Source: Winogradskyella sp. (GTDB lineage Bacteria > Bacteroidota > Bacteroidia > Flavobacteriales > Flavobacteriaceae). From it: 64,000 nt of DNA. Positions 6,912-50,054 of the stretch are shown here, piece after piece (the stretch's first letter is position 1; the number at the start of each line of letters is the position of its first letter). The notes below the pieces were generated by a model, which worked only from the letters and a program-made list of their open reading frames with translations, searched no databases and had not been told where the DNA came from. The position numbers were made by a program, and so were the translations under genes. The stretch lies in assembly GCF_003712105.1 (NCBI RefSeq), contig NZ_RHLG01000006.1:19240-83239 (forward strand), in the 5' to 3' direction.

Positions 6912-8540
6912 ATGGCAGAAGTAATTAATATGCCACGACTTAGCGATACCATGGAAGAAGGTACCGTTGCTACATGGCTAAAACAAGTAGGTGATAAGGT
7001 TGAAGAAGGTGATATTTTAGCTGAAATTGAAACTGACAAAGCTACAATGGAGTTCGAGTCTTTTCACGAAGGAACACTACTTCATATTGGTGTGCAAGAA
7101 GGTGAAACAACAAAAGTTGATGCGTTGCTAGCTATTATCGGTGACGAAGGCGAAGACATTTCTGGACTTTTAAATGGAAATGCTTCTGAAATAAAGGAAG
7201 AAGATGTCACTCTGAGCGCAGTCGAAGAGTCTAAAAGTGATTCTGGGTCACTGAGCGAAGTCGAGGTGCCTGAAGGAGTTGTAGTAGTTACTATGCCACG
7301 ACTTAGCGATACTATGGAAGAAGGTACTGTGGCAACATGGTTAAAAAAGGTAGGAGATACTGTAGAAGAAGGCGACATACTCGCTGAAATCGAAACAGAT
7401 AAAGCTACAATGGAGTTTGAATCGTTCAACGCTGGTACTCTGTTGCATGTTGGGCTACAAGAAGGAGATTCTGCTAAAGTAGATGCATTGCTAGCAATCA
7501 TTGGACCTGCTGGTACAGATGTGTCAAATGTGGCAAAAAACTTCAAGGTTGTTGGTGAAGCAAAACCAGAACCTAAAAAAGAAGAGAAAAAAGTTGAGGC
7601 TCCAAAAGCTGCTGAGCCTAAAAAAGAGAGCGTTGCTTCAAGTGCTGCTAAACCTAGTCCAGCACCAGTTTCTAGTAATGGCCGAATTTTTGTTTCTCCA
7701 TTAGCCAAGAAAATGGCAGAGGAAAAGGGAATTAATTTAAATCAAGTTAGTGGCTCTGGAGAAAATGGTAGAATTATAAAACGCGATATAGAAAACTTTA
7801 CACCTGCAGCTGCCGCAACGTCATCAGCTCCAGTTGCCAAATTTGTGCCTTCTGGTCAAGAAGATTTTGATGAGGTTCCAAATAGCAACATGCGTAAAGC
7901 TATTGCTAAAAATTTAGCAAAATCTAAGTTTACTGCACCACATTACTACCTTAACGTAGAGTTCGACATGGATAATGCTATAGCGTTTAGAGCGCAATAC
8001 AATTCATTGCCAGACACTAAGATATCGTATAACGATATGGTTGTTAAAGCATGTGCTTTAGCATTACGTCAGCATCCGCAAGTAAATTCTCGCTGGTTCG
8101 ATGACCATATGCAGTTAAATAATCATGTGCATATTGGTGTTGCAGTTGCAGTGCCTGATGGTTTAGTTGTGCCTGTGGTTAGATTTGCAAATGAGCAAAG
8201 TTTGCCGCAAATTGGTGCAGCTGTAAAGGATTATGCCAAACGAGCTCGTGATAAGAAATTAACATTAGATGAAATGGATGGCAGTACATTTACTATATCT
8301 AACTTAGGTATGTTTGGTATTGAAAGTTTTACATCTATAATTAATCAGCCAAATTCGGCAATTTTATCAGTCGGTGCAATAGTGTCGAAGCCAGTTGTAA
8401 AGAATGGCGTGGTAGTTCCTGGTAATACTATGAAGTTAACCATGGCTTGTGATCACAGAACAGTTGATGGTGCAACAGGAGCACAATTCCTTCAAACATT
8501 AAAAGGATATATTGAAAATCCTGTAACAATGTTAGTGTAA
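6912..8540 (+). CDS. pdhC: Pyruvate dehydrogenase E2 dihydrolipoamide acetyltransferase, two lipoyl domains
   Basis: Two ETDKATME lipoyl motifs, PSBD (SPLAKK...GSGENGRI), catalytic DHRTVDG. Confidence 0.95.
   Translation: MAEVINMPRLSDTMEEGTVATWLKQVGDKVEEGDILAEIETDKATMEFESFHEGTLLHIGVQEGETTKVDALLAIIGDEGEDISGLLNGNASEIKEEDVTLSAVEESKSDSGSLSEVEVPEGVVVVTMPRLSDTMEEGTVATWLKKVGDTVEEGDILAEIETDKATMEFESFNAGTLLHVGLQEGDSAKVDALLAIIGPAGTDVSNVAKNFKVVGEAKPEPKKEEKKVEAPKAAEPKKESVASSAAKPSPAPVSSNGRIFVSPLAKKMAEEKGINLNQVSGSGENGRIIKRDIENFTPAAAATSSAPVAKFVPSGQEDFDEVPNSNMRKAIAKNLAKSKFTAPHYYLNVEFDMDNAIAFRAQYNSLPDTKISYNDMVVKACALALRQHPQVNSRWFDDHMQLNNHVHIGVAVAVPDGLVVPVVRFANEQSLPQIGAAVKDYAKRARDKKLTLDEMDGSTFTISNLGMFGIESFTSIINQPNSAILSVGAIVSKPVVKNGVVVPGNTMKLTMACDHRTVDGATGAQFLQTLKGYIENPVTMLV
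7206..7232 (+). repeat. REP-like hairpin copy 1, in frame in pdhC (GTCA-CTCT-GAGCGCAGTCGA-AGAG-TCT)
   Basis: 26/27 nt identical to the reverse complement of 45129-45155; encodes VTLSAVEES. Confidence 0.85.
7247..7269 (+). repeat. REP-like hairpin copy 2, in frame in pdhC (CACT-GAGCGAAGTCGA-GGTG)
   Basis: Same core as copy 1, direct orientation, 14 nt downstream; encodes SLSEVEV. Confidence 0.8.
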
Positions 8541-35811: not shown

Positions 35812-37854
35812 TTATTTTATCAACCCAGCCCGTCTTAATAGTGCTTCAGGTTTAGGTTCTTGACCTCTAAACTTTTTGTATAAGGTCATTGGGTTTTCTG
35901 TACCACCTTGAGATAATACATAAGCTTTAAATTTATTAGCAACAGTTTTATTAAAAATACCTTGGTCTTTAAAATATTCAAAAGCATCAGCATCCAAAAC
36001 TTCGGCCCATTTGTAACTGTAATACCCTGAAGAATAACCACCTTGAAAAATATGCGCAAAAGCTGTACTCATACAATTTTCAGCTACATCAGGATATAAA
36101 CTTGTTGAGCCAAAAGCTTTTTTCTCAAACTCTTTTACAGATACTTCTCTAGAATGCTTGCGCTGAGCGTAGTCGAAGTGCCACGCCATATCTAACATTC
36201 CAAAACTAAGTTGGCGCAAGGTTTGCATACCTTCATGGAATGTGGCCGAAGCTTTTATTTTTTCAATTAATTCCATCGGAATAACATCGCCAGTTTTGTA
36301 ATGTGTTGCAAATAACTTGAGTGTTTCTTCTTCGTAGCACCAATTTTCTAATATTTGACTAGGTAACTCAACAAAATCCCAAAATACACTTGTGCCAGAT
36401 AAACTTGGATATGTTGTATTTGCAAGCATACCATGTAAAGCATGACCAAACTCGTGAAAAAGTGTGGTAACTTCATTAAAGGTTAGTAAAGAAGGTTTGC
36501 TTTTTGTAGGCTTTGTAAAGTTGCAAACGATAGATACATGAGGCCTATGATTCTGACCGTCTTTAATCATTTGAGGTTTAAAGGATGTCATCCATGCACC
36601 ATTTCGTTTTCCAGCTCTTGGAAAAAAGTCGGCATAAAAAATCGATACTAATTCATTTTCAGCATCCACAACTTTGTAGGTCATTACATCTTCATGATAT
36701 TTGTCTATAGTATCAATGTCTTCAAACCGTAACCCAAATAATTTTTCAGCTACAGTAAATGCGCCGTTAATTACATTTTCTAACTTGAAATAAGGTTTTA
36801 ACTGTTCATCATCAAGGCTAAAAAGTTTCTGCTTTAATTTTTCAGAATAGTAAGCCGAGTCCCATTTTTGGAGTTGGTTAATACCATCTAAATCCTTTGC
36901 AAAAGCTTCTAAATTTTCAAATTCTTTTTGTGCTGCAGGTTTGGCTTTTTCTAAAAGCTCGCCCAAAAAGTTATTTACCTTTTCTGGCGTTTCTGCCATG
37001 CGCTCTTCTAACACAAAATCGGCGTGTGTTTTATAGCCCAAAAGTTGTGCGCGTTGCGCTCTAAGATTTGCAATTCGTAGTACAATATCTTGATTGTCTA
37101 ATTCGTCACCTTTAAACCCTTTACTGCCAAAGGCTTTTGATAATCGTTCTCTTAATTTACGATTATCAGCGTAAGTCATAAACGGAATATAGCTTGGATA
37201 ATCTAAGGTAATTAACCAGCCATTTTTCCCTTTGCTTTCAGCCATCTGCTTTGCAGCTTCTTTTGCACCTTCAGGTAAGCCAGACACATCTTCTTCTTTG
37301 GTAAGTAACATTTCAAAGGCATTCGTTTCTGCCAAAATGTGTTCGCCAAATTTTAGCTTCAATTGGCTTAATTCTTTGTCAATAGCACGAAGTTGCTCTT
37401 TTTTATCCTCCGGCAGATTTGCGCCATTTCTGGCAAAACCTTTATACTTTTTGTCTAGTAGTGTGGTTTGCTCGGTAGATAAGCCTAACCCTGATTTAGA
37501 ATCGTAAACTGCTTTAACGCGCTTAAATAAATCTTTATTTAGCGTAATATCATTGCTAAACTCAGACAATAATGGTGATACCTCTTGTGCTATTTTCTGT
37601 ATCTCATCATTAGTTTCGGCAGAGTTTAAATTGAAAAATATACTCGATATTCTATCTAATTCTTCACCAGAATAATCCAAAGCTTCAATAGTATTTTGAA
37701 ATGTTGGAACTTCGGCGTTTTGTACAATAGCATCAATCTCTGATTTTGCTTTTTCAATAGCTGTTTTAAAAGCAGGTAAAAAATCGTCGTTTTTTAGTTT
37801 TGAAAACGGTGCTGTATTATATGCTGTATTGAAGTATTGATTAAGAATGTTCAT
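35812..37854 (-). CDS. dcp: M3 family peptidyl-dipeptidase Dcp
   Basis: KRNGAWM, TLFHEFGHALH, DFVELPSQ, YSYKWAEVLDAD. Confidence 0.9.
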   Translation of the reverse strand: MNILNQYFNTAYNTAPFSKLKNDDFLPAFKTAIEKAKSEIDAIVQNAEVPTFQNTIEALDYSGEELDRISSIFFNLNSAETNDEIQKIAQEVSPLLSEFSNDITLNKDLFKRVKAVYDSKSGLGLSTEQTTLLDKKYKGFARNGANLPEDKKEQLRAIDKELSQLKLKFGEHILAETNAFEMLLTKEEDVSGLPEGAKEAAKQMAESKGKNGWLITLDYPSYIPFMTYADNRKLRERLSKAFGSKGFKGDELDNQDIVLRIANLRAQRAQLLGYKTHADFVLEERMAETPEKVNNFLGELLEKAKPAAQKEFENLEAFAKDLDGINQLQKWDSAYYSEKLKQKLFSLDDEQLKPYFKLENVINGAFTVAEKLFGLRFEDIDTIDKYHEDVMTYKVVDAENELVSIFYADFFPRAGKRNGAWMTSFKPQMIKDGQNHRPHVSIVCNFTKPTKSKPSLLTFNEVTTLFHEFGHALHGMLANTTYPSLSGTSVFWDFVELPSQILENWCYEEETLKLFATHYKTGDVIPMELIEKIKASATFHEGMQTLRQLSFGMLDMAWHFDYAQRKHSREVSVKEFEKKAFGSTSLYPDVAENCMSTAFAHIFQGGYSSGYYSYKWAEVLDADAFEYFKDQGIFNKTVANKFKAYVLSQGGTENPMTLYKKFRGQEPKPEALLRRAGLIK
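36160..36181 (+). repeat. REP-like hairpin copy 3, antisense within dcp (CGCT-GAGCGTAGTCGA-AGTG)
   Basis: Same core; read on the gene strand as HFDYAQR. Confidence 0.8.
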
Positions 37855-43907: not shown

Positions 43908-46900
43908 TTAATTTACATTTACTCTTATCCCTTCAGAATGGCTACTAAATTCTGGCGCGTACATAGACTGTATTGTAGTAATTCCATTGCTCATGTCCCC
44001 TGCATTATTTACCCTAAGGTCATATTCAAAAATATAAATCCCTTTAGGTAAATAGTCTATAAAAAAGTTTGTTGCAGCATCCTTAGTGCTTTCGTAATAG
44101 CCTAAGCCATCTTGCCATTTGTATTGAGACAATACGTTTACAGGTTCAAATCCTGCTGCTCGCATATCTTTAAGATGGAGGAATTCCATATCACGATCAC
44201 TACGAAGCTCAATACGAACTCTCACCAAATCACCAACTTTAAGTTGCGTATCGGTATTTATTTCTGCTAGTTCTTCACCACGGTCAGTGTTCGTTTTTTT
44301 GAATAATTTTTTCTGCAATTGCAAAGGTGTTTTAGCAGAAGTGATCTTATCTAGACCTTCAAAGTACTGCCAATATAATACACCCCAAGCAATACCTTCA
44401 CCTTTTTTGGTCAATGTCACTTGAGCTTGTTCCTGAGATATTTCGTTAGCATTCCAGCTGGTTTTATAATAACCTGTGCCAGCTTCAATGTTTACATTAT
44501 CAAGTTTTGAAGGTGAAATAGACTTACCTCCAACTTTAACATCAACAGCATCTGTAATACTCAACCATTCACTACCCTGAAGTAATAATGCATAAACAGC
44601 TTCGGCTGTAGCTTTTGTAGTTTCCCATTTATTGGTTTGCTTATTTTTCAACAACCATATTTTTAAGTTATCAACGGTTTCTATATTATTCTCAATTTCA
44701 GAAAACGCTTCTATTAAAAGTGATTGAGTTTCAATAGGCGCTTGATGCCAATAATAAGATGCAGTATTAGCTTTCCAATACATGCCTAATTCTTCGGAGG
44801 TAATACTCGTTTCTTTTAGAGACCTTAATATTTTGCTAGCCACTGTATGTTCTTCAGCTCGATGCATTGTTAACGCCATCAATCCTTTTGCATATAACGA
44901 GCGACTTAACCAATAGTCTTCGATTTGACCTTTATAATAATCCATAATTCGACCAACTTCTTTTGAAGCTTTAATTTCTGGATAGAAACTACGCACATAC
45001 ATATAATGTAGTTGTGTGTAAGACAAATGGTCTTTACTTAAATCAACTTTTGGATTGTAGCGTTTTAAATCTTTATATTCTTTTACAAATTGCTTGTCTA
45101 AATATCGAATAGCTTTTTCAATCATCTGAGACTCTTCGACTGCGCTCAGAGAGACATTTAATTGTTTCAAATGTCCAAACCCACCAACGATATGTTGGGT
45201 TATATATCTATTATCACGTCCACCATTAAACCATGGCCATGCGCCAGATGAATGTTGATTGTTTTTTAACTTACCAATAGAAGCTTGTAACTCGCTATTC
45301 ATCTTATTTAAATCGAATAACAATGCTATGCGTTTTTTCTGTTCGGTTTCAGATTGTGCATCACGTAACCAAGGTGTTTCTTGAATTAATAATGATTTTA
45401 ATTCTTCGTTTTTTTCTAAGTTTGAAAGCAACGCGTCTGTCGACTTCCATTGGTTAAAAACTGCTTCAATTTTTGGACTAGACTTAGTAATATGTTGTGC
45501 TAATGCATTAGCATAATAACGACTGAATGTTTGCTCATTACACTGGTATGGATATTCCATTAAATATGGTAATGCTTGTACGGCATACCATGCCGGATTA
45601 GAAGTAATCTCTAAAGTAAGCTTATGATGTTTTAAAGTTGAATTTGGGTCGCTGATCGAAGTCGAAGCGAGCTTATCTAATGTAAATGTCTTCGTTTGAT
45701 TACTGCGTACCCACATTGGTAAGGTTTCAGTAACTAACATTCGGTTAGATAATACAGGTAATACATTTTGCTCACCATCGCTAAAATCTTCAGATTGTGC
45801 AATGACTTTATATTGCACGGCTTGGATATTATCTGGAATTTTAAGTGTCCAATTGACTTGTGTATTTCCTTTTGCATCTACAGAAAAATCTTGGACACTG
45901 AGCGTAGTCGAAGTGTTGTCGTTTCGACCTCGCTCAACGACCAATAATTCTTCGGATATCTCTTTTCCAGTTATGGCATCTTCTAATACTAGCTGCGCTT
46001 TTCCGGTTAAGGCTTTATCACTAAGATTTGCAATTTTTGTACTTATAGATATGGCATCACCTTCACGGAGAAAACGTGGTGCATTTGGGATTACCATCAA
46101 TTCTTTTTGTGTTACTGCTTCATATTCTGAAACAGTACTTTCTAGAGATTTGGTATGTGCAAGCAATTGCAATTTCCATTTGGTTAATGCTTCGGGAGCT
46201 TTAAAATTAAAGCTCACATTACCATTTGCATCTGTTTGTAACTGAGGAAAGAAAAAGGCCGTTTCTTGAAGATTTTTACGGATTTGAATAAGTGTGTTTG
46301 CCTTAGACTTGCCAGGACTATTTTCACCCTTGGAAATTTTTAATCCAGGAACTTGCCCTGAAAATGATTCTGTAACATTAGCATTTATATTAAATTCAGA
46401 TTCTTCAGGATCAGCTAAAGCTGCTAACTCATTGCTTGGAGCGGATGATCTTGATTTTTTATCAATACCAGAACCAATTATTACCACTTCATCTAGGGAT
46501 TCGTCTTCTTCAGCTAACGAATATGCTAATTGATCATATCTGCGAATGTTATCTCCAAAGTATAACCCAAACCAATTTAGCCTATCAAAAGTCTGCCCAT
46601 TATAACGCGGTATATTTTCAAAATTATTATGGCGTCTAAAATTAATTACGCCAAAACTATTCCTGTTATTTTTATAATGCTTCGAGCTATAGTTAGGTTT
46701 GTAAATTGGATTAAATGACCAGTTGTGCGGTTTAAACTCATTTAAAGAGGCATCGTACATACTTGCCAGAAGCTCAGCGGTTACTTTATCACCTTTAGGG
46801 CCTTTAACTTTAAATGACCAAGTCTCATCTTGTCCAGGTTGTAATTTATCTCTAAACGTGCTGGTTTCGATTTCTAAATCTGTTTTAGGATATGGCACTC

Positions 46901-49900
46901 TTATAGTAATACTGCTAGAAGTTAAACTGTTATAAGCAGCCAAACTATAATGTATTACAAACCCACCAATATCATCAGGATATATAGGTACTTGTATTGT
47001 GTGTTTTGAATCTGAAATTTGATGTATTTGGGTTTCAATAATCTCACCTTTTTTCTCTATCTCTATGGTAAGCTTTGCATCTTCCATGGCACTGCCAAAT
47101 GTTAGTAATGCAGTTTCGTTTATAGCATATTGTTGTTTATCTAAGCTAATTTTAAACAATGAATTGTCTGCAACAGTTTTGTCTTTATCACTGTATAAAT
47201 ATGTGTAAGCTTGGTCTTTAACCTTTTGTCCAAACTTATCTGTGGTTTCAAGCTCAATAATATAGTTGCCCGACGCCCATTTTTTGGTGCGTTTTAATAA
47301 GACAGACTTTGAAGTTTCAGTATCAAAACCTGTTTCATAAACAACATCACTTTTATCCCAATTTCTGTAATTACTTTCGTCATCATAAGCTTCATGAGGA
47401 AACATTTTTTTGAATTCCTCTTTTGATAATAGCTTATAATCTGGTGCTTTCCATGGTCGTGGTCTTAAAACCGTATTTGGCGCGATAAGCTTATAGATTT
47501 TAAGTTTTCCTTTTGCAGGTACAAACTCACCATTAAGGTTAGTTGTGTTAATCTGAAGTTCTGTTTCTTTCTGAGATTTATCAATACGCTGAGGTATATT
47601 TAGTGTAGCCGTCAGTGTGTGATAACCTACGCTCACTAGAGTAGTGACGCTTCTTGTTTCTCCATTAATATCGGTAACGTCTGCTGTAACTTCATAATTA
47701 AATACCGGTAAATCATCTTTAGATACACTTTTGTCTGGTAAGGCTTTAAAATTGATTTCAAAATTACCAGAAGCATCCGTTTTAGTTTCGCCAAATGCAA
47801 TTTCTTGAGGTTCGATATTAAAACTTGGTCTTCTGTAAAAATACCACCTTGGTAATTGTACTTGTCGTTTTACGCGATATACAACCTTAGCATCTGTAAT
47901 ATTACTTCCAGCAAAGGCAATAGCATTTCCTTTAACTGTTATGCTGTCATTAACCTTATACGATTCTGTAACAGGAAGAAATTGAGCCTCAAATTTTGGA
48001 CGTTTGTACTCTTCAACGGAGATGTATTCGTAAGCTCTATCTATGATGTTAGAGTAGCTTTGTATACTAAACTGACCTGTTAAACCGGTATTAGGCAATA
48101 TAAATTCACCATGAAAAGAACCATATTCATTAGTAGTGAAACTAAGTTCGGCAACTTTCTCACCATTCACATTATGCAATGCAGCAGTAATTGATGTATT
48201 AGCTACAATAGATGTATTTTTATTTACAGTCTTTGTAACTATACCTTTAAAGTACACCGTTTGGCCAGGTCTATAAATACTTCGGTCTGTAAATACAAAG
48301 GTCTTGTATTGCGTACTTGTGTTTTCTCTGTTGTTGTATTCACGATTGATGTAAGATCGACCAAAAATTCCCGTATCATTTCCAGATGTAATAATGGCAT
48401 AAACATCATGGTAATTTTCCTTTACTTTTTTAAAGTAGAACTTGCCATAATTATCTGTTGTATACGATGAACTAAATGTCTTTTCTCTGTTCCTGTAGGT
48501 TTTGTATTTTAACTTCACATCAGCATTAACAACCGGATGGCCGTTATTTCTATTAATAACTTGGTAGGTTACTTGTTTGTCTTCTTGAGTTTCTAATAGC
48601 GCTAAATCAGTTACTTGAATAGTTGTTGCATAAAATACATCTGTATTAGTTTTTGCCACAATGATATATAGACCATTATCAAGTGCTGGTAGTACAACTT
48701 CAATACTATGTGCTTGATAATCGCCTTCATTTTTTAATTGACTTTTAAAAGATGTGTTGGGTTTTAATCGCTTTATGAACTTCTCCTTTTCTTTAGTGTT
48801 ATATAGCTCTCCGAATTTGTCTCTTTGTGAAGCATTTATTTTATAGATGTCAAAATCTAAAGCATCTAAGTTTTTGTAATTCACTAAAATAAGTGCAGGA
48901 TTATTTACTGGTAAATAGCTTTCTGTACGTAAACTTAAGCTAGGTTTTTCTATTCTTCCTTTTAGATTTTTGCATTTAGCAGCGGCATCACTTTTTGGGT
49001 ATTTAGAAATCACAGACTCGCATAGTTCTAATGCATCTTTATTTAGCCATCGATAAGTTAAAGTAGTCTCATCTTGAGTTCTATATTTTAAGGCTTTAAC
49101 CGCTTTTATGTTTGCTATTTCGTAACTGTATAGTGCTGAATTCTCATTTTTGCCTATGGTTTCTAATTCTTTTCTGTAGGTCTCGGTTAACTCATCTAAA
49201 ACACCATCAAAAGTTGCATGTTGCTTCACAAAATCTAGCCTTGATATATTAGCAGAAATAAATGGCTTTGAACTTTTATCTTTTTGATGAAAACGCAGTA
49301 AGTTTTGATATACTTTAAGTGCCTTAAGTTGTAAATTAACGGAATCTTTGGATGCAAGTTTTAGGCTTATAAATCTATCGTTAGGAGCAATTAAATCTGG
49401 ATTGTCAATACTAAATTTATAAGCGGGTTGGATTATAGAGTTTTCGCTAGTCTTATAAAACTCTAAAGCATTGTAGCTTAAAAAATCAAAAAGCGTTGGC
49501 CTATAGTCTTTAGATTTTTTTTGAGTAATTAAAAGCGCATCATAATTTTCTAAAGGCTCTTGCTGTAAAAGAAGTCCATTTTGTAGTGACCTCTCATAAT
49601 ATGTGTGTATTTCAAAGAAAAGAGTTTCTAAATCCCAAGTTCTAAAATCATCAGATACGTTGACTTGTGGTTTTGAACGATCGTAAAATTTATAACGGTT
49701 TTGATTATAATATTGCCAATATAGATTCGCTAATAAATTTTCAAGAAGGCGTTTTGTTACCAATTCGCTGGTATCTATCTCAGCTTTAAAGTTTGAAACT
49801 ATTTTTAATTGTGAATCTTCTTCTAATGTTTGAAGGTATTTGCTCTGGTGGATGAGGCATTTTACCTTTTGAATAGTATTGTTGTCTTTTCTGGCCTTGG

Positions 49901-50054
49901 TAAATATAATTTCAACCTTTTCAGAAGCAGATTTAATTAACCCTTGATTCTCAAGTTTTGTGATTTCTTTCCACAAAGTATCATAGTCCTTAGACTGCGC
50001 ATTAGTTAGAGATGCAAAGCATATAAGCATAAAAACGATTACGGCTTTTTTCAT
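43908..50054 (-). CDS. Bacterial alpha-2-macroglobulin family protein
   Basis: TDRSIYRPGQ, QETAFFFP, YPYQCNEQ thioester motif (CxEQ), C-terminal EFSSHS. Confidence 0.9.
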   Translation of the reverse strand: MKKAVIVFMLICFASLTNAQSKDYDTLWKEITKLENQGLIKSASEKVEIIFTKARKDNNTIQKVKCLIHQSKYLQTLEEDSQLKIVSNFKAEIDTSELVTKRLLENLLANLYWQYYNQNRYKFYDRSKPQVNVSDDFRTWDLETLFFEIHTYYERSLQNGLLLQQEPLENYDALLITQKKSKDYRPTLFDFLSYNALEFYKTSENSIIQPAYKFSIDNPDLIAPNDRFISLKLASKDSVNLQLKALKVYQNLLRFHQKDKSSKPFISANISRLDFVKQHATFDGVLDELTETYRKELETIGKNENSALYSYEIANIKAVKALKYRTQDETTLTYRWLNKDALELCESVISKYPKSDAAAKCKNLKGRIEKPSLSLRTESYLPVNNPALILVNYKNLDALDFDIYKINASQRDKFGELYNTKEKEKFIKRLKPNTSFKSQLKNEGDYQAHSIEVVLPALDNGLYIIVAKTNTDVFYATTIQVTDLALLETQEDKQVTYQVINRNNGHPVVNADVKLKYKTYRNREKTFSSSYTTDNYGKFYFKKVKENYHDVYAIITSGNDTGIFGRSYINREYNNRENTSTQYKTFVFTDRSIYRPGQTVYFKGIVTKTVNKNTSIVANTSITAALHNVNGEKVAELSFTTNEYGSFHGEFILPNTGLTGQFSIQSYSNIIDRAYEYISVEEYKRPKFEAQFLPVTESYKVNDSITVKGNAIAFAGSNITDAKVVYRVKRQVQLPRWYFYRRPSFNIEPQEIAFGETKTDASGNFEINFKALPDKSVSKDDLPVFNYEVTADVTDINGETRSVTTLVSVGYHTLTATLNIPQRIDKSQKETELQINTTNLNGEFVPAKGKLKIYKLIAPNTVLRPRPWKAPDYKLLSKEEFKKMFPHEAYDDESNYRNWDKSDVVYETGFDTETSKSVLLKRTKKWASGNYIIELETTDKFGQKVKDQAYTYLYSDKDKTVADNSLFKISLDKQQYAINETALLTFGSAMEDAKLTIEIEKKGEIIETQIHQISDSKHTIQVPIYPDDIGGFVIHYSLAAYNSLTSSSITIRVPYPKTDLEIETSTFRDKLQPGQDETWSFKVKGPKGDKVTAELLASMYDASLNEFKPHNWSFNPIYKPNYSSKHYKNNRNSFGVINFRRHNNFENIPRYNGQTFDRLNWFGLYFGDNIRRYDQLAYSLAEEDESLDEVVIIGSGIDKKSRSSAPSNELAALADPEESEFNINANVTESFSGQVPGLKISKGENSPGKSKANTLIQIRKNLQETAFFFPQLQTDANGNVSFNFKAPEALTKWKLQLLAHTKSLESTVSEYEAVTQKELMVIPNAPRFLREGDAISISTKIANLSDKALTGKAQLVLEDAITGKEISEELLVVERGRNDNTSTTLSVQDFSVDAKGNTQVNWTLKIPDNIQAVQYKVIAQSEDFSDGEQNVLPVLSNRMLVTETLPMWVRSNQTKTFTLDKLASTSISDPNSTLKHHKLTLEITSNPAWYAVQALPYLMEYPYQCNEQTFSRYYANALAQHITKSSPKIEAVFNQWKSTDALLSNLEKNEELKSLLIQETPWLRDAQSETEQKKRIALLFDLNKMNSELQASIGKLKNNQHSSGAWPWFNGGRDNRYITQHIVGGFGHLKQLNVSLSAVEESQMIEKAIRYLDKQFVKEYKDLKRYNPKVDLSKDHLSYTQLHYMYVRSFYPEIKASKEVGRIMDYYKGQIEDYWLSRSLYAKGLMALTMHRAEEHTVASKILRSLKETSITSEELGMYWKANTASYYWHQAPIETQSLLIEAFSEIENNIETVDNLKIWLLKNKQTNKWETTKATAEAVYALLLQGSEWLSITDAVDVKVGGKSISPSKLDNVNIEAGTGYYKTSWNANEISQEQAQVTLTKKGEGIAWGVLYWQYFEGLDKITSAKTPLQLQKKLFKKTNTDRGEELAEINTDTQLKVGDLVRVRIELRSDRDMEFLHLKDMRAAGFEPVNVLSQYKWQDGLGYYESTKDAATNFFIDYLPKGIYIFEYDLRVNNAGDMSNGITTIQSMYAPEFSSHSEGIRVNVN
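45129..45155 (-). repeat. REP-like hairpin copy 4, in frame in A2M (GTCT-CTCT-GAGCGCAGTCGA-AGAG-TCT)
   Basis: 26/27 nt identical to copy 1; encodes VSLSAVEES. Confidence 0.88.
45648..45671 (+). repeat. REP-like hairpin copy 5, antisense within A2M (CGCT-GATCGAAGTCGA-AGCG)
   Basis: Perfect TCGCT/AGCGA stem, one core mismatch; encodes ASTSISD. Confidence 0.72.
45895..45943. repeat. REP-like inverted doublet (copies 6 and 7), in frame in A2M
   Basis: ACACT-GAGCGTAGTCGA-AGTGT on + (45895-45916) and CGTT-GAGCGAGGTCGA-AACG on - (45920-45939); encodes VVERGRNDNTSTTLSV. Confidence 0.85.

Follow-up and report, generated by a model that had tools for sequence, protein, structure and literature searches.

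Hairpin repeats of a flavobacterial family at three sites of an alpha-2-macroglobulin gene in Winogradskyella, probably satellites of an Ssn-type nuclease

We analysed a stretch of 64,000 nucleotides of the genome of Winogradskyella sp. (assembly GCF_003712105.1, contig NZ_RHLG01000006.1, positions 19,240 to 83,239; called "the window" here, and its positions are used below), in which a gene of the alpha-2-macroglobulin (A2M) family carries four copies of a short hairpin repeat around the codons of its thioester motif. These four elements are probably in-frame copies of a hairpin repeat of the Flavobacteriaceae that is a satellite of an Ssn-type GIY-YIG nuclease, and they occupy three old, tolerated slots in the gene. 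The tolerance of palindromic repeats in frame is a known kind of event, and the flavobacterial repeat family itself is apparently undescribed so far. The cluster is not the outcome of a recent local burst; it is a long-standing and tolerated colonisation, and codons derived from the repeat stand at the same three positions in dozens of orthologues from Winogradskyella, Flavivirga, Algibacter and other genera. With more than 100 orthologues, three fixed sites and many frames and orientations, the A2M gene provides an unusually clear record of such elements in coding DNA.

Four copies of the repeat in the A2M gene

A covariance model trained on 47 genomic copies that did not include those of A2M finds seven places above noise in the 64-kb window, and four of these lie in the A2M gene (Table 1), all within 815 bp around the thioester motif as the original prediction had held. 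The next-best match in the gene is at noise level (9.6 bits, E 5); there is thus no fifth copy in the gene by this model, and the other ~5.3 kb are free of the repeat, as had also been claimed. A 16-mer taken from the copies noticed originally matches the window six times against 0.24 expected. When 68 copies are placed randomly in 3.15 Mb, four fall within 815 bp in 4.5e-5 of the trials, and when doublets are collapsed three events do so in 0.0066 of the trials.

Table 1. Features of the window
Feature	Position	Strand	Details
A2M-family gene	43908..50054	-	one intact frame, 2048 aa, 6.1 kb; Pfam MG2, A2M_BRD, A2M, bMG10
YPYQCNEQ codons (aa 1500-1507)	45534..45557	-	CNEQ thioester motif (aa 1504-1507) at 45534-45545
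Hairpin copy A (site 4), tGTC.. subfamily	45126..45157	-	38.8 bits, E 2e-8; core 45136-45147; stem CTCT/AGAG
Possible worn tandem copy beside copy B (low confidence)	45624..45647	-	codons PNSTLKHH
Hairpin copy B (site 2)	45644..45675	+	23.5 bits, E 6e-4; core 45654-45665 (GATCGAAGTCGA, 1 mismatch); stem TCGCT/AGCGA
Hairpin copy C (site 1), doublet half	45890..45921	+	36.5 bits; core 45900-45911; stem ACACT/AGTGT
Hairpin copy D (site 1), other doublet half	45914..45945	-	32.2 bits; core 45924-45935 (GAGCGAGGTCGA, 1 mismatch); stem GTCGTT/AACGAC
Two further family copies, E2 acetyltransferase linker	7204-7235, 7243-7274	+	covariance model
Further family copy, antisense in 680-aa peptidase gene	36155..36186	+	covariance model; translated FDYAQ

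Copy A is sense to the A2M gene and is translated NVSLSAVEESQ; its nearest paralogue is the pdhC copy at 7204-7235, 38 kb away (29/32 identical), and the best orthologous copy matches it at 22/28. Copy B is antisense and is translated KLASTSISDPN; its stem recurs in two other species (26/28 and 24/28 identical). Copies C (antisense, DNTSTTLSVQD) and D (sense, in another frame, LVVERGRNDNT) form a convergent doublet with their cores 12 nt apart, which can be folded as a single long hairpin (-26.6 kcal/mol as RNA and -12.9 as DNA).

The gene that holds the four repeats is an open frame throughout, the CNEQ codons and every Pfam domain are present, and its orthologues are full length, which agrees with the original observation that frame and CxEQ motif are intact. 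Judged by its sequence, the product is a bacterial A2M with a thioester motif, in which MG, bait-region, CxEQ and bMG10 features are all present and thioester chemistry is predicted; C[NS]EQ is kept in 18 of 20 orthologues aligned. The bait region (Pfam A2M_BRD, aa 968-1083) is away from the repeat sites. The protease trap looks intact, and the repeats are likely to be of little consequence for A2M biology.

The three sites among A2M orthologues

Twenty orthologues from the genus and two outgroups were aligned at the protein and the codon level, and a further alignment was made of 116 orthologues taken from a protein collection; by the source names given there, the genus is Winogradskyella. 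The nearest other protein among the 5.8 billion of the collection is 81% identical over aa 1340-1700. In the 20 orthologous loci (about 154 kb) the matches to the repeat core or model fall at alignment positions 1374/1382, 1464/1471 and 1636, except for a weak match of 18.3 bits in one locus (L021) that is not mapped to a site. Among the 116 orthologues 131 of the 142 matches to repeat-type peptides are at aa 1369-1384, 1463-1471 or 1634-1636. Up to four readings occur at each site in these proteins, and orientation and copy number vary as well, scattered over the tree.

Site 1 (aa about 1372-1390) is hypervariable among the 116 orthologues in its content and in its length (23-45 aa across the stretch). 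The present genome has 11 residues more than the shortest forms, and these correspond to the convergent doublet VVERGRN-DN-TSTTLSV. A doublet of the same kind is found in at least 15 other orthologues from scattered clades, with differing spacer lengths, and in two orthologues a further 24-nt unit is nested at the centre of a copy of the doublet, with the translation VVKHRSLSEVEVSRNDN; other forms have a single sense copy in another frame (LVGSSAVET) or a single antisense copy. In one close relative a single copy of subfamily 1 (the subfamilies are defined below) stands where the present genome has a doublet of subfamily 2, and in both of them the entire loop between a conserved L and a conserved F is element DNA. 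Palindromes of unrelated families occupy site 1 in other species (SSPLGKLEGAS / RKQASSPPSGELEGA and AEALEATK...TSKTSAT are examples), so that several kinds of repeat can be accommodated there.

Site 2 (aa about 1463-1471) is four residues longer in the present genome than in most orthologues. At the counterpart of the possible worn tandem copy beside copy B most orthologues read TSTTLS(H/N)H, and in three of them the DNA is 1-2 mismatches from the repeat core. Site 4 (aa about 1634-1642) shows no length difference among orthologues. Here and in several species its 27-nt segment from GTC to TCT forms a perfect repeat copy, with stems that are unlike one another (CTCT/AGAG, AGCCT/AGGCT, TCTTC/GAAGA and ACATC/GATGT); in one species the element is in the opposite orientation and doubled, and in many a worn hairpin (VIQSDSEES) is found. 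The orthologue in one relative, G013 (the present genome is G000, and other G and L numbers are relatives' genomes and loci), has a tandem pair at site 4, translated TSTTLSDQ NSTTLSDQ.

Synonymous sites of these genes are saturated, as identical residues share their codon in 53% of cases, no more than in the most distant outgroups. Despite this, the codons GTC/CTG/AGC/GCA/GTC/GAA at site 4 are spelt identically in species whose proteins are 65% identical overall (6e-6 by chance from codon usage), and the identity therefore belongs to the repeat DNA and not to the protein. The content of the sites turns over: on a gene tree built without the three sites the minimum numbers of state changes are 24, 15 and 47 for the three sites, and the closest relatives, which are 84-93% identical in the segments beside and between the sites, nevertheless differ from the present genome at all three. 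There is no sign in these alignments of mosaic recombination with breakpoints at the hairpins, as nearly all segments have the same six relatives as their closest. In-situ compensatory evolution of the site 4 stems was considered and is unlikely, since L003 and L006 differ in all five stem pairs and at only one of the 12 positions of the centre.

The simplest reading of these observations is that the gene has three old permissive slots whose hairpin content has been replaced repeatedly. Of the original suggestion of an insertion hotspot fed by local spread, the hotspot survives and recent spread in this strain does not. Orthologues with no recognisable repeat do not share the loop sequences of the present gene, so that the refuting case named with the original prediction is not seen; the loops differ in sequence, though they are often equal in length.

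The repeat family and its GIY-YIG genes

The repeat unit is about 24-32 nt long: a short 5' tag (tGTCA or tGGT) is followed by a stem of 4-6 bp, free in its sequence, around a centre of 12 conserved nt, GAGCGNAGTCGA. Copies fall into two subfamilies, tGTCA-N4-GAGCGCAGTCGA-N4'-TCT and tGGT-N4-GAGCG[AGT]AGTCGA-N4'. The exact 12-nt centre occurs 46 times in the genome (3.15 Mb, 34% G+C), compared with 0-2 times for shuffled centres, and 43 of the 46 are flanked by at least four complementary bases. With the stem required and up to two core mismatches allowed there are about 68 copies. Double-sided changes number 69 over the four stem pairs, compared with 18.6 in shuffled data, a count made on copies preselected for the stem, so that the independent evidence for the hairpin is the 43 of 46. 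The conserved centre was also compared with hammerhead-like and T-loop-like structures, and its core positions fit neither.

Most copies (43 of 68, or 63%) lie outside open reading frames (ORFs) of at least 120 aa, although about 92% of the genome is covered by such ORFs. Among the 25 copies within ORFs four of the five readings without a stop are in use (LSxVE, ERSR, STxLS and FDYAQ), and none of these copies is in the frame that contains TGA; a stop-free frame is thus required. By eye, from translations, we also take in-frame copies to be present in leucyl-tRNA synthetase (LeuRS), RNase R, two E2 acyltransferases, a 2-oxoacid dehydrogenase E1 and BioF. The gene taken to be that of LeuRS, an essential enzyme (G000 C6:209528-212398), has four in-frame copies, including a doublet translated AVRSRSNQDVISTTLNHQ (ERSRN..STTLS), the pattern of A2M site 1. 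For annotation, the family explains peptides that would otherwise look out of place in proteins of flavobacteria, among them LSAVE, TSTTLS and ERSRN.

The expectation that copies of such a REP-like element tend to cluster holds genome-wide, where 22 of 61 gaps between neighbours are no longer than 1 kb and convergent doublets recur. Among single copies between co-directional genes 17 of 19 are aligned with transcription. At five or more intergenic places a 24-nt unit is exactly centred in another copy. A 52-nt composite, TGTCACCTTGAGCG[TGGTCACTGAGCGAAGTCGAAGTG]CAGTCGAAAGGTCT, is found with its outer stem constant at C3:75679, C6:53941, C6:57634, C6:138620 and C9:426963 of G000, and is a copy nested exactly in the middle of another that was afterwards multiplied as a unit. 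At two places (L043, G000 C6:966300-967200, and L044, C2:131600-132500) a tRNA gene is followed by two tandem tRNA-like units of 112/117 nt that have a hairpin copy in place of the T-loop region, which suggests that hairpin loops already in place serve as insertion sites for the element. In G013 (C1:3981695-3981780) four tandem copies are spaced by exactly 24 nt, or eight codons.

Exact 14-mers of the repeat are present in all 19 genomes of the genus (1-47 each, against 0-1 for a reversed control). In a sample of 121 genomes, one per genus across the Flavobacteriaceae, the centre motif is found in 77, and some 17 of these have at least 20 exact copies. No Rfam family matches the 64-kb window at the gathering threshold, and on four hairpin-rich loci Rfam gave only tRNAs and sub-threshold chance matches.

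The hairpins are associated with small GIY-YIG genes. A 107-aa GIY-YIG open frame in the present genome (C9 220619-220942) has inverted hairpins 8 nt and 13 nt beyond its two ends, and a second GIY-YIG gene (C3 88865) is flanked on one side, with a hairpin pair after the gene; Pfam PF01541 is the sole match in both proteins. In three other species (L032, L036 and L037) a GIY-YIG gene is flanked on both sides in the order TGTCA-stem-centre-stem-TC, 4-5 nt, ATG, a GIY-YIG gene of about 115-135 aa, stop and inverted hairpin, with the second hairpin inside the end of the gene or a few nt past it. Judged by coordinates, G013 and G014 have two loci apiece that are arranged in this way. In the 3.6 kb around the four small GIY-YIG genes of the present genome there are 4 hairpins, compared with an estimated 0.08 or so expected, and two genomes of the genus without small GIY-YIG genes have 1-2 hairpins each. 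The association of hairpin and GIY-YIG gene in the genus is real. That the nuclease cuts or moves the hairpins we infer from this arrangement. In the second locus of the present genome the GIY-YIG gene and the next, kinase-like, gene form one ORF of 427 aa that runs through the hairpin pair (C3:88865-90148), because the hairpins are open in most frames; this fused ORF likely confuses gene callers.

A similar arrangement is known from the SsnA proteins, single-domain GIY-YIG nucleases that cut only single-stranded DNA beside a hairpin repeat; copies of this repeat, which is called NTS and in the wider sense SRM, are typically found on either side of the nuclease gene (Chenal et al. 2025, PMC11893778). 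The flavobacterial repeat resembles the SRM (Neisseria NTS/dRS3) in being a multicopy hairpin repeat within the range of 20-50 nt (with tens of copies per genome here and hundreds in Neisseria), in its inverted copies around a GIY-YIG gene of roughly 100 aa, and in copy numbers that differ widely among related species. A non-palindromic 5' tag that sets a direction (CGTCA in NTS, HGTCWY in the SRM pattern) has a counterpart, TGTCA, in part of the family: 17 of the 68 copies, those of the tGTCA subfamily, carry HGTCWY, and the other subfamily is tagged tGGT. The repeat differs in that here the stem is free and a 12-nt centre is conserved, whereas in NTS it is the stem, of 7 bp, that is conserved and the loop is small, and in that 37% of its copies are inside ORFs, compared with 2% of NTS in N. 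meningitidis. Because the bracketing of GIY-YIG genes matches the published Ssn/SRM arrangement, we regard a non-autonomous satellite of an Ssn-type nuclease as the best reading of the repeat. As far as sequence comparison can say, it would be a flavobacterial relative of the SRM kind, with the same architecture and gene link, a different hairpin design and a far more intragenic distribution. The Ssn/SRM type of repeat, whose description in 2025 drew mainly on Neisseria and other proteobacteria, would then have a relative in flavobacteria, often intragenic, that the published pattern overlooks.

Origin of the A2M copies and alternative explanations

If the four elements are satellite copies in old slots, as we think probable, their history may have been as follows. 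The three slots would have held hairpin-derived codons since before the genus diverged, and their content would turn over fast, with copies being replaced, flipped, doubled, nested and worn down. Re-occupation of the slots was probably favoured by the tendency of the element to land within or next to hairpins that are already present. One route may have been new insertion of this sort, which the nested copies and the tRNA-like units show the element to undergo, and an alternative one may have been copying from another hairpin following a break. Selection would leave only the in-frame and stop-free outcomes, and A2M most likely merely tolerates the added peptides.

Several points weigh against this reading. 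At site 4 and in the shortest site 1 forms a fresh copy is as long as the unrecognisable sequence that stands there in other orthologues; true insertion therefore cannot be shown at these places, and the copies there are inferred to have arisen by replacement or conversion of an older copy. The published SRM pattern, HGTCWYN(0-2)YYVSBRHN(0-5)WNVSBRGN(0-2)RNCYNB, covers none of the 68 copies and has three unrelated matches in the genome. The GIY-YIG proteins are at most candidates for the Ssn subfamily cd10448, and had no NCBIfam match above the cut-off. Only two of the four small GIY-YIG genes of the present genome adjoin a hairpin, and the number of copies is only loosely correlated with the number of GIY-YIG genes. 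We know of no Ssn system in which movement of the hairpin has been demonstrated. Finally, the structural model by which the sites are placed in the protein is weak (mean pLDDT 58).

That model, an AlphaFold2 prediction of aa 1255-2048 made with 62 sequences, is usable for placement relative to secondary structure only. In it site 1 is a low-confidence loop between strands of a beta-sandwich, in the domain after Pfam A2M; site 2 is a loop in the junction before the helical thioester domain; and site 4 is a loop that joins two long helices of the thioester domain, about 130 residues past the thioester. The length variation among orthologues at these sites agrees with the placement, and the three variable regions are probably loops in the model. 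Of the solved A2M structures, single-sequence and profile searches align the MG2 domain alone and none in the repeat region.

A role of the A2M hairpins as nucleic acid is the strongest of the alternatives, although we consider it unlikely. They could act in the mRNA as signals for pausing, processing or stability, or as single-stranded DNA cut sites through which the Ssn-type nuclease would limit or steer recombination of the thioester-coding segment, much as a gene between two NTS copies behaves in Neisseria transformation; copies of NTS flanking a gene lower transformation in N. meningitidis (PMC11893778). Such a role would agree with the spelling of the repeat, whose codons are rare in this genome, being kept or restored at the same sites despite synonymous saturation, with the orthologous stems that differ and always pair, with the orientation of single intergenic copies along transcription and with the strong folding of the doublet. 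On the other hand, many orthologues have at one site or more no recognisable hairpin, a reversed one or an unrelated palindrome, and the nearest relatives are unlike the present genome at all three sites. Copies A and B, which are nearest the thioester codons, point apart, whereas the hairpins that bracket GIY-YIG genes point together, and the family is also found in LeuRS, RNase R, E2 linkers and other genes that have no common theme.

The original prediction had also offered selection for new surface loops in a protease trap, that is, adaptive or diversifying selection that keeps inserts as new or variable loops near the thioester domain. The hypervariability of site 1 and the placement of all three sites in predicted loops are what this would lead one to expect, and A2M-type proteins do interact with foreign proteases. 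The sites give it no support: DNA at the same site is read in varied frames and orientations into unrelated peptides (LSAVE, TSTTLS, FDSAQ or ERSR), one and the same site reading LSAVE, TSTTLS or FDSAQ according to species. As unrelated peptides and palindromes fill the same site, no particular peptide is favoured. Moreover, the bait region is elsewhere in the protein, and housekeeping enzymes carry identical peptides. We judge such selection quite improbable.

It is doubtful to much the same degree that Ssn-type cutting of single-stranded hairpins, with repair from other copies, repeatedly overwrites the loops and so amounts to hairpin-addressed loop rewriting or to control over recombination in the thioester-coding segment. 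If true, this would explain fresh copies with new stems at the same codons with no change in length.

Accumulation of the motif in the manner of a DNA uptake sequence or a HIP1-type word, by point mutation and biased uptake or repair and with no insertion, would account for site 4 and the shortest site 1 forms being equal in length with and without the repeat. We regard it as very improbable, since there are only about 68 copies, most of them outside the long ORFs that make up nearly all of the genome, since the motif is a hairpin with covarying stems that occurs as discrete 24-nt units nested or in tandem, and since sites 1 and 2 are clearly longer (by 11 and 4 aa) and the repeat is physically linked to GIY-YIG genes.

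Movement by a RAYT (an IS200/IS605-type Y1 transposase), as in REP/REPIN families, is hardly credible, for all that the repeat is a short and mostly extragenic hairpin that frequently forms convergent doublets and follows the orientation of its neighbouring genes: Y1_Tnp (RAYT, PF01797) is absent from the present genome, although the identical search finds the family in 6 of 14 control genomes, it is likewise absent from the high-copy genomes G003, G005 and G018 and present in the low-copy G008 and G010, and the repeat core is absent from all four Y1_Tnp loci of the relatives examined. The REPIN-like description of the site 1 doublet therefore holds for its geometry, since convergent doublets recur and LeuRS has the same one, and fails for the enzyme, a small GIY-YIG nuclease taking the place of the RAYT.

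Comparison with other repeat families places the element among known types in some respects. Like REP/REPIN (Bertels and Rainey 2011, PMC3116915) it has hairpin units, convergent doublets, local clustering and long-lived populations of copies. Unlike REP/REPIN it has no associated RAYT, and unlike in a REPIN the halves of its doublets carry different stems, so that self-pairing of a half is at least as good as pairing between the two. The Rickettsia palindromic elements (RPE), which Ogata et al. reportedly described in 2000, are palindromic repeats in frame within genes. Near the same recB site, different REPs are found in two Xanthomonas species (Di Nocera et al. 2013, PMC3733652). As with RPE and intragenic REPs, our copies are in-frame palindromes that leave genes, housekeeping genes included, intact and add short peptides at tolerated places; they differ in the repeated use of the same three sites, in changing frames and orientations, among over 100 orthologues. 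RPE are also longer (about 100-150 nt, compared with 24-32 nt here), and the present element has no GTAG or CGTC tag. The small dispersed repeats (SDR) of Nostoc, which Elhai et al. are said to have reported in Genome Res in 2008 with no associated enzyme gene identified, are similarly mobile-looking, about 21-27 nt long, of hairpin potential, nested and found inside conserved genes; they belong to another phylum and have another sequence, and unlike them the present repeat has a candidate enzyme gene. Of the features of a MITE, no target-site duplication is visible when filled A2M sites are compared with shorter (never truly empty) ones.

Elsewhere in the A2M protein, aa 1178-1259 (window about 46280-46520) are 30-47% identical to proteins of roughly 1010-1150 aa elsewhere in the genus, and the alignment to several orthologues breaks here; this segment looks like a variable shared module.

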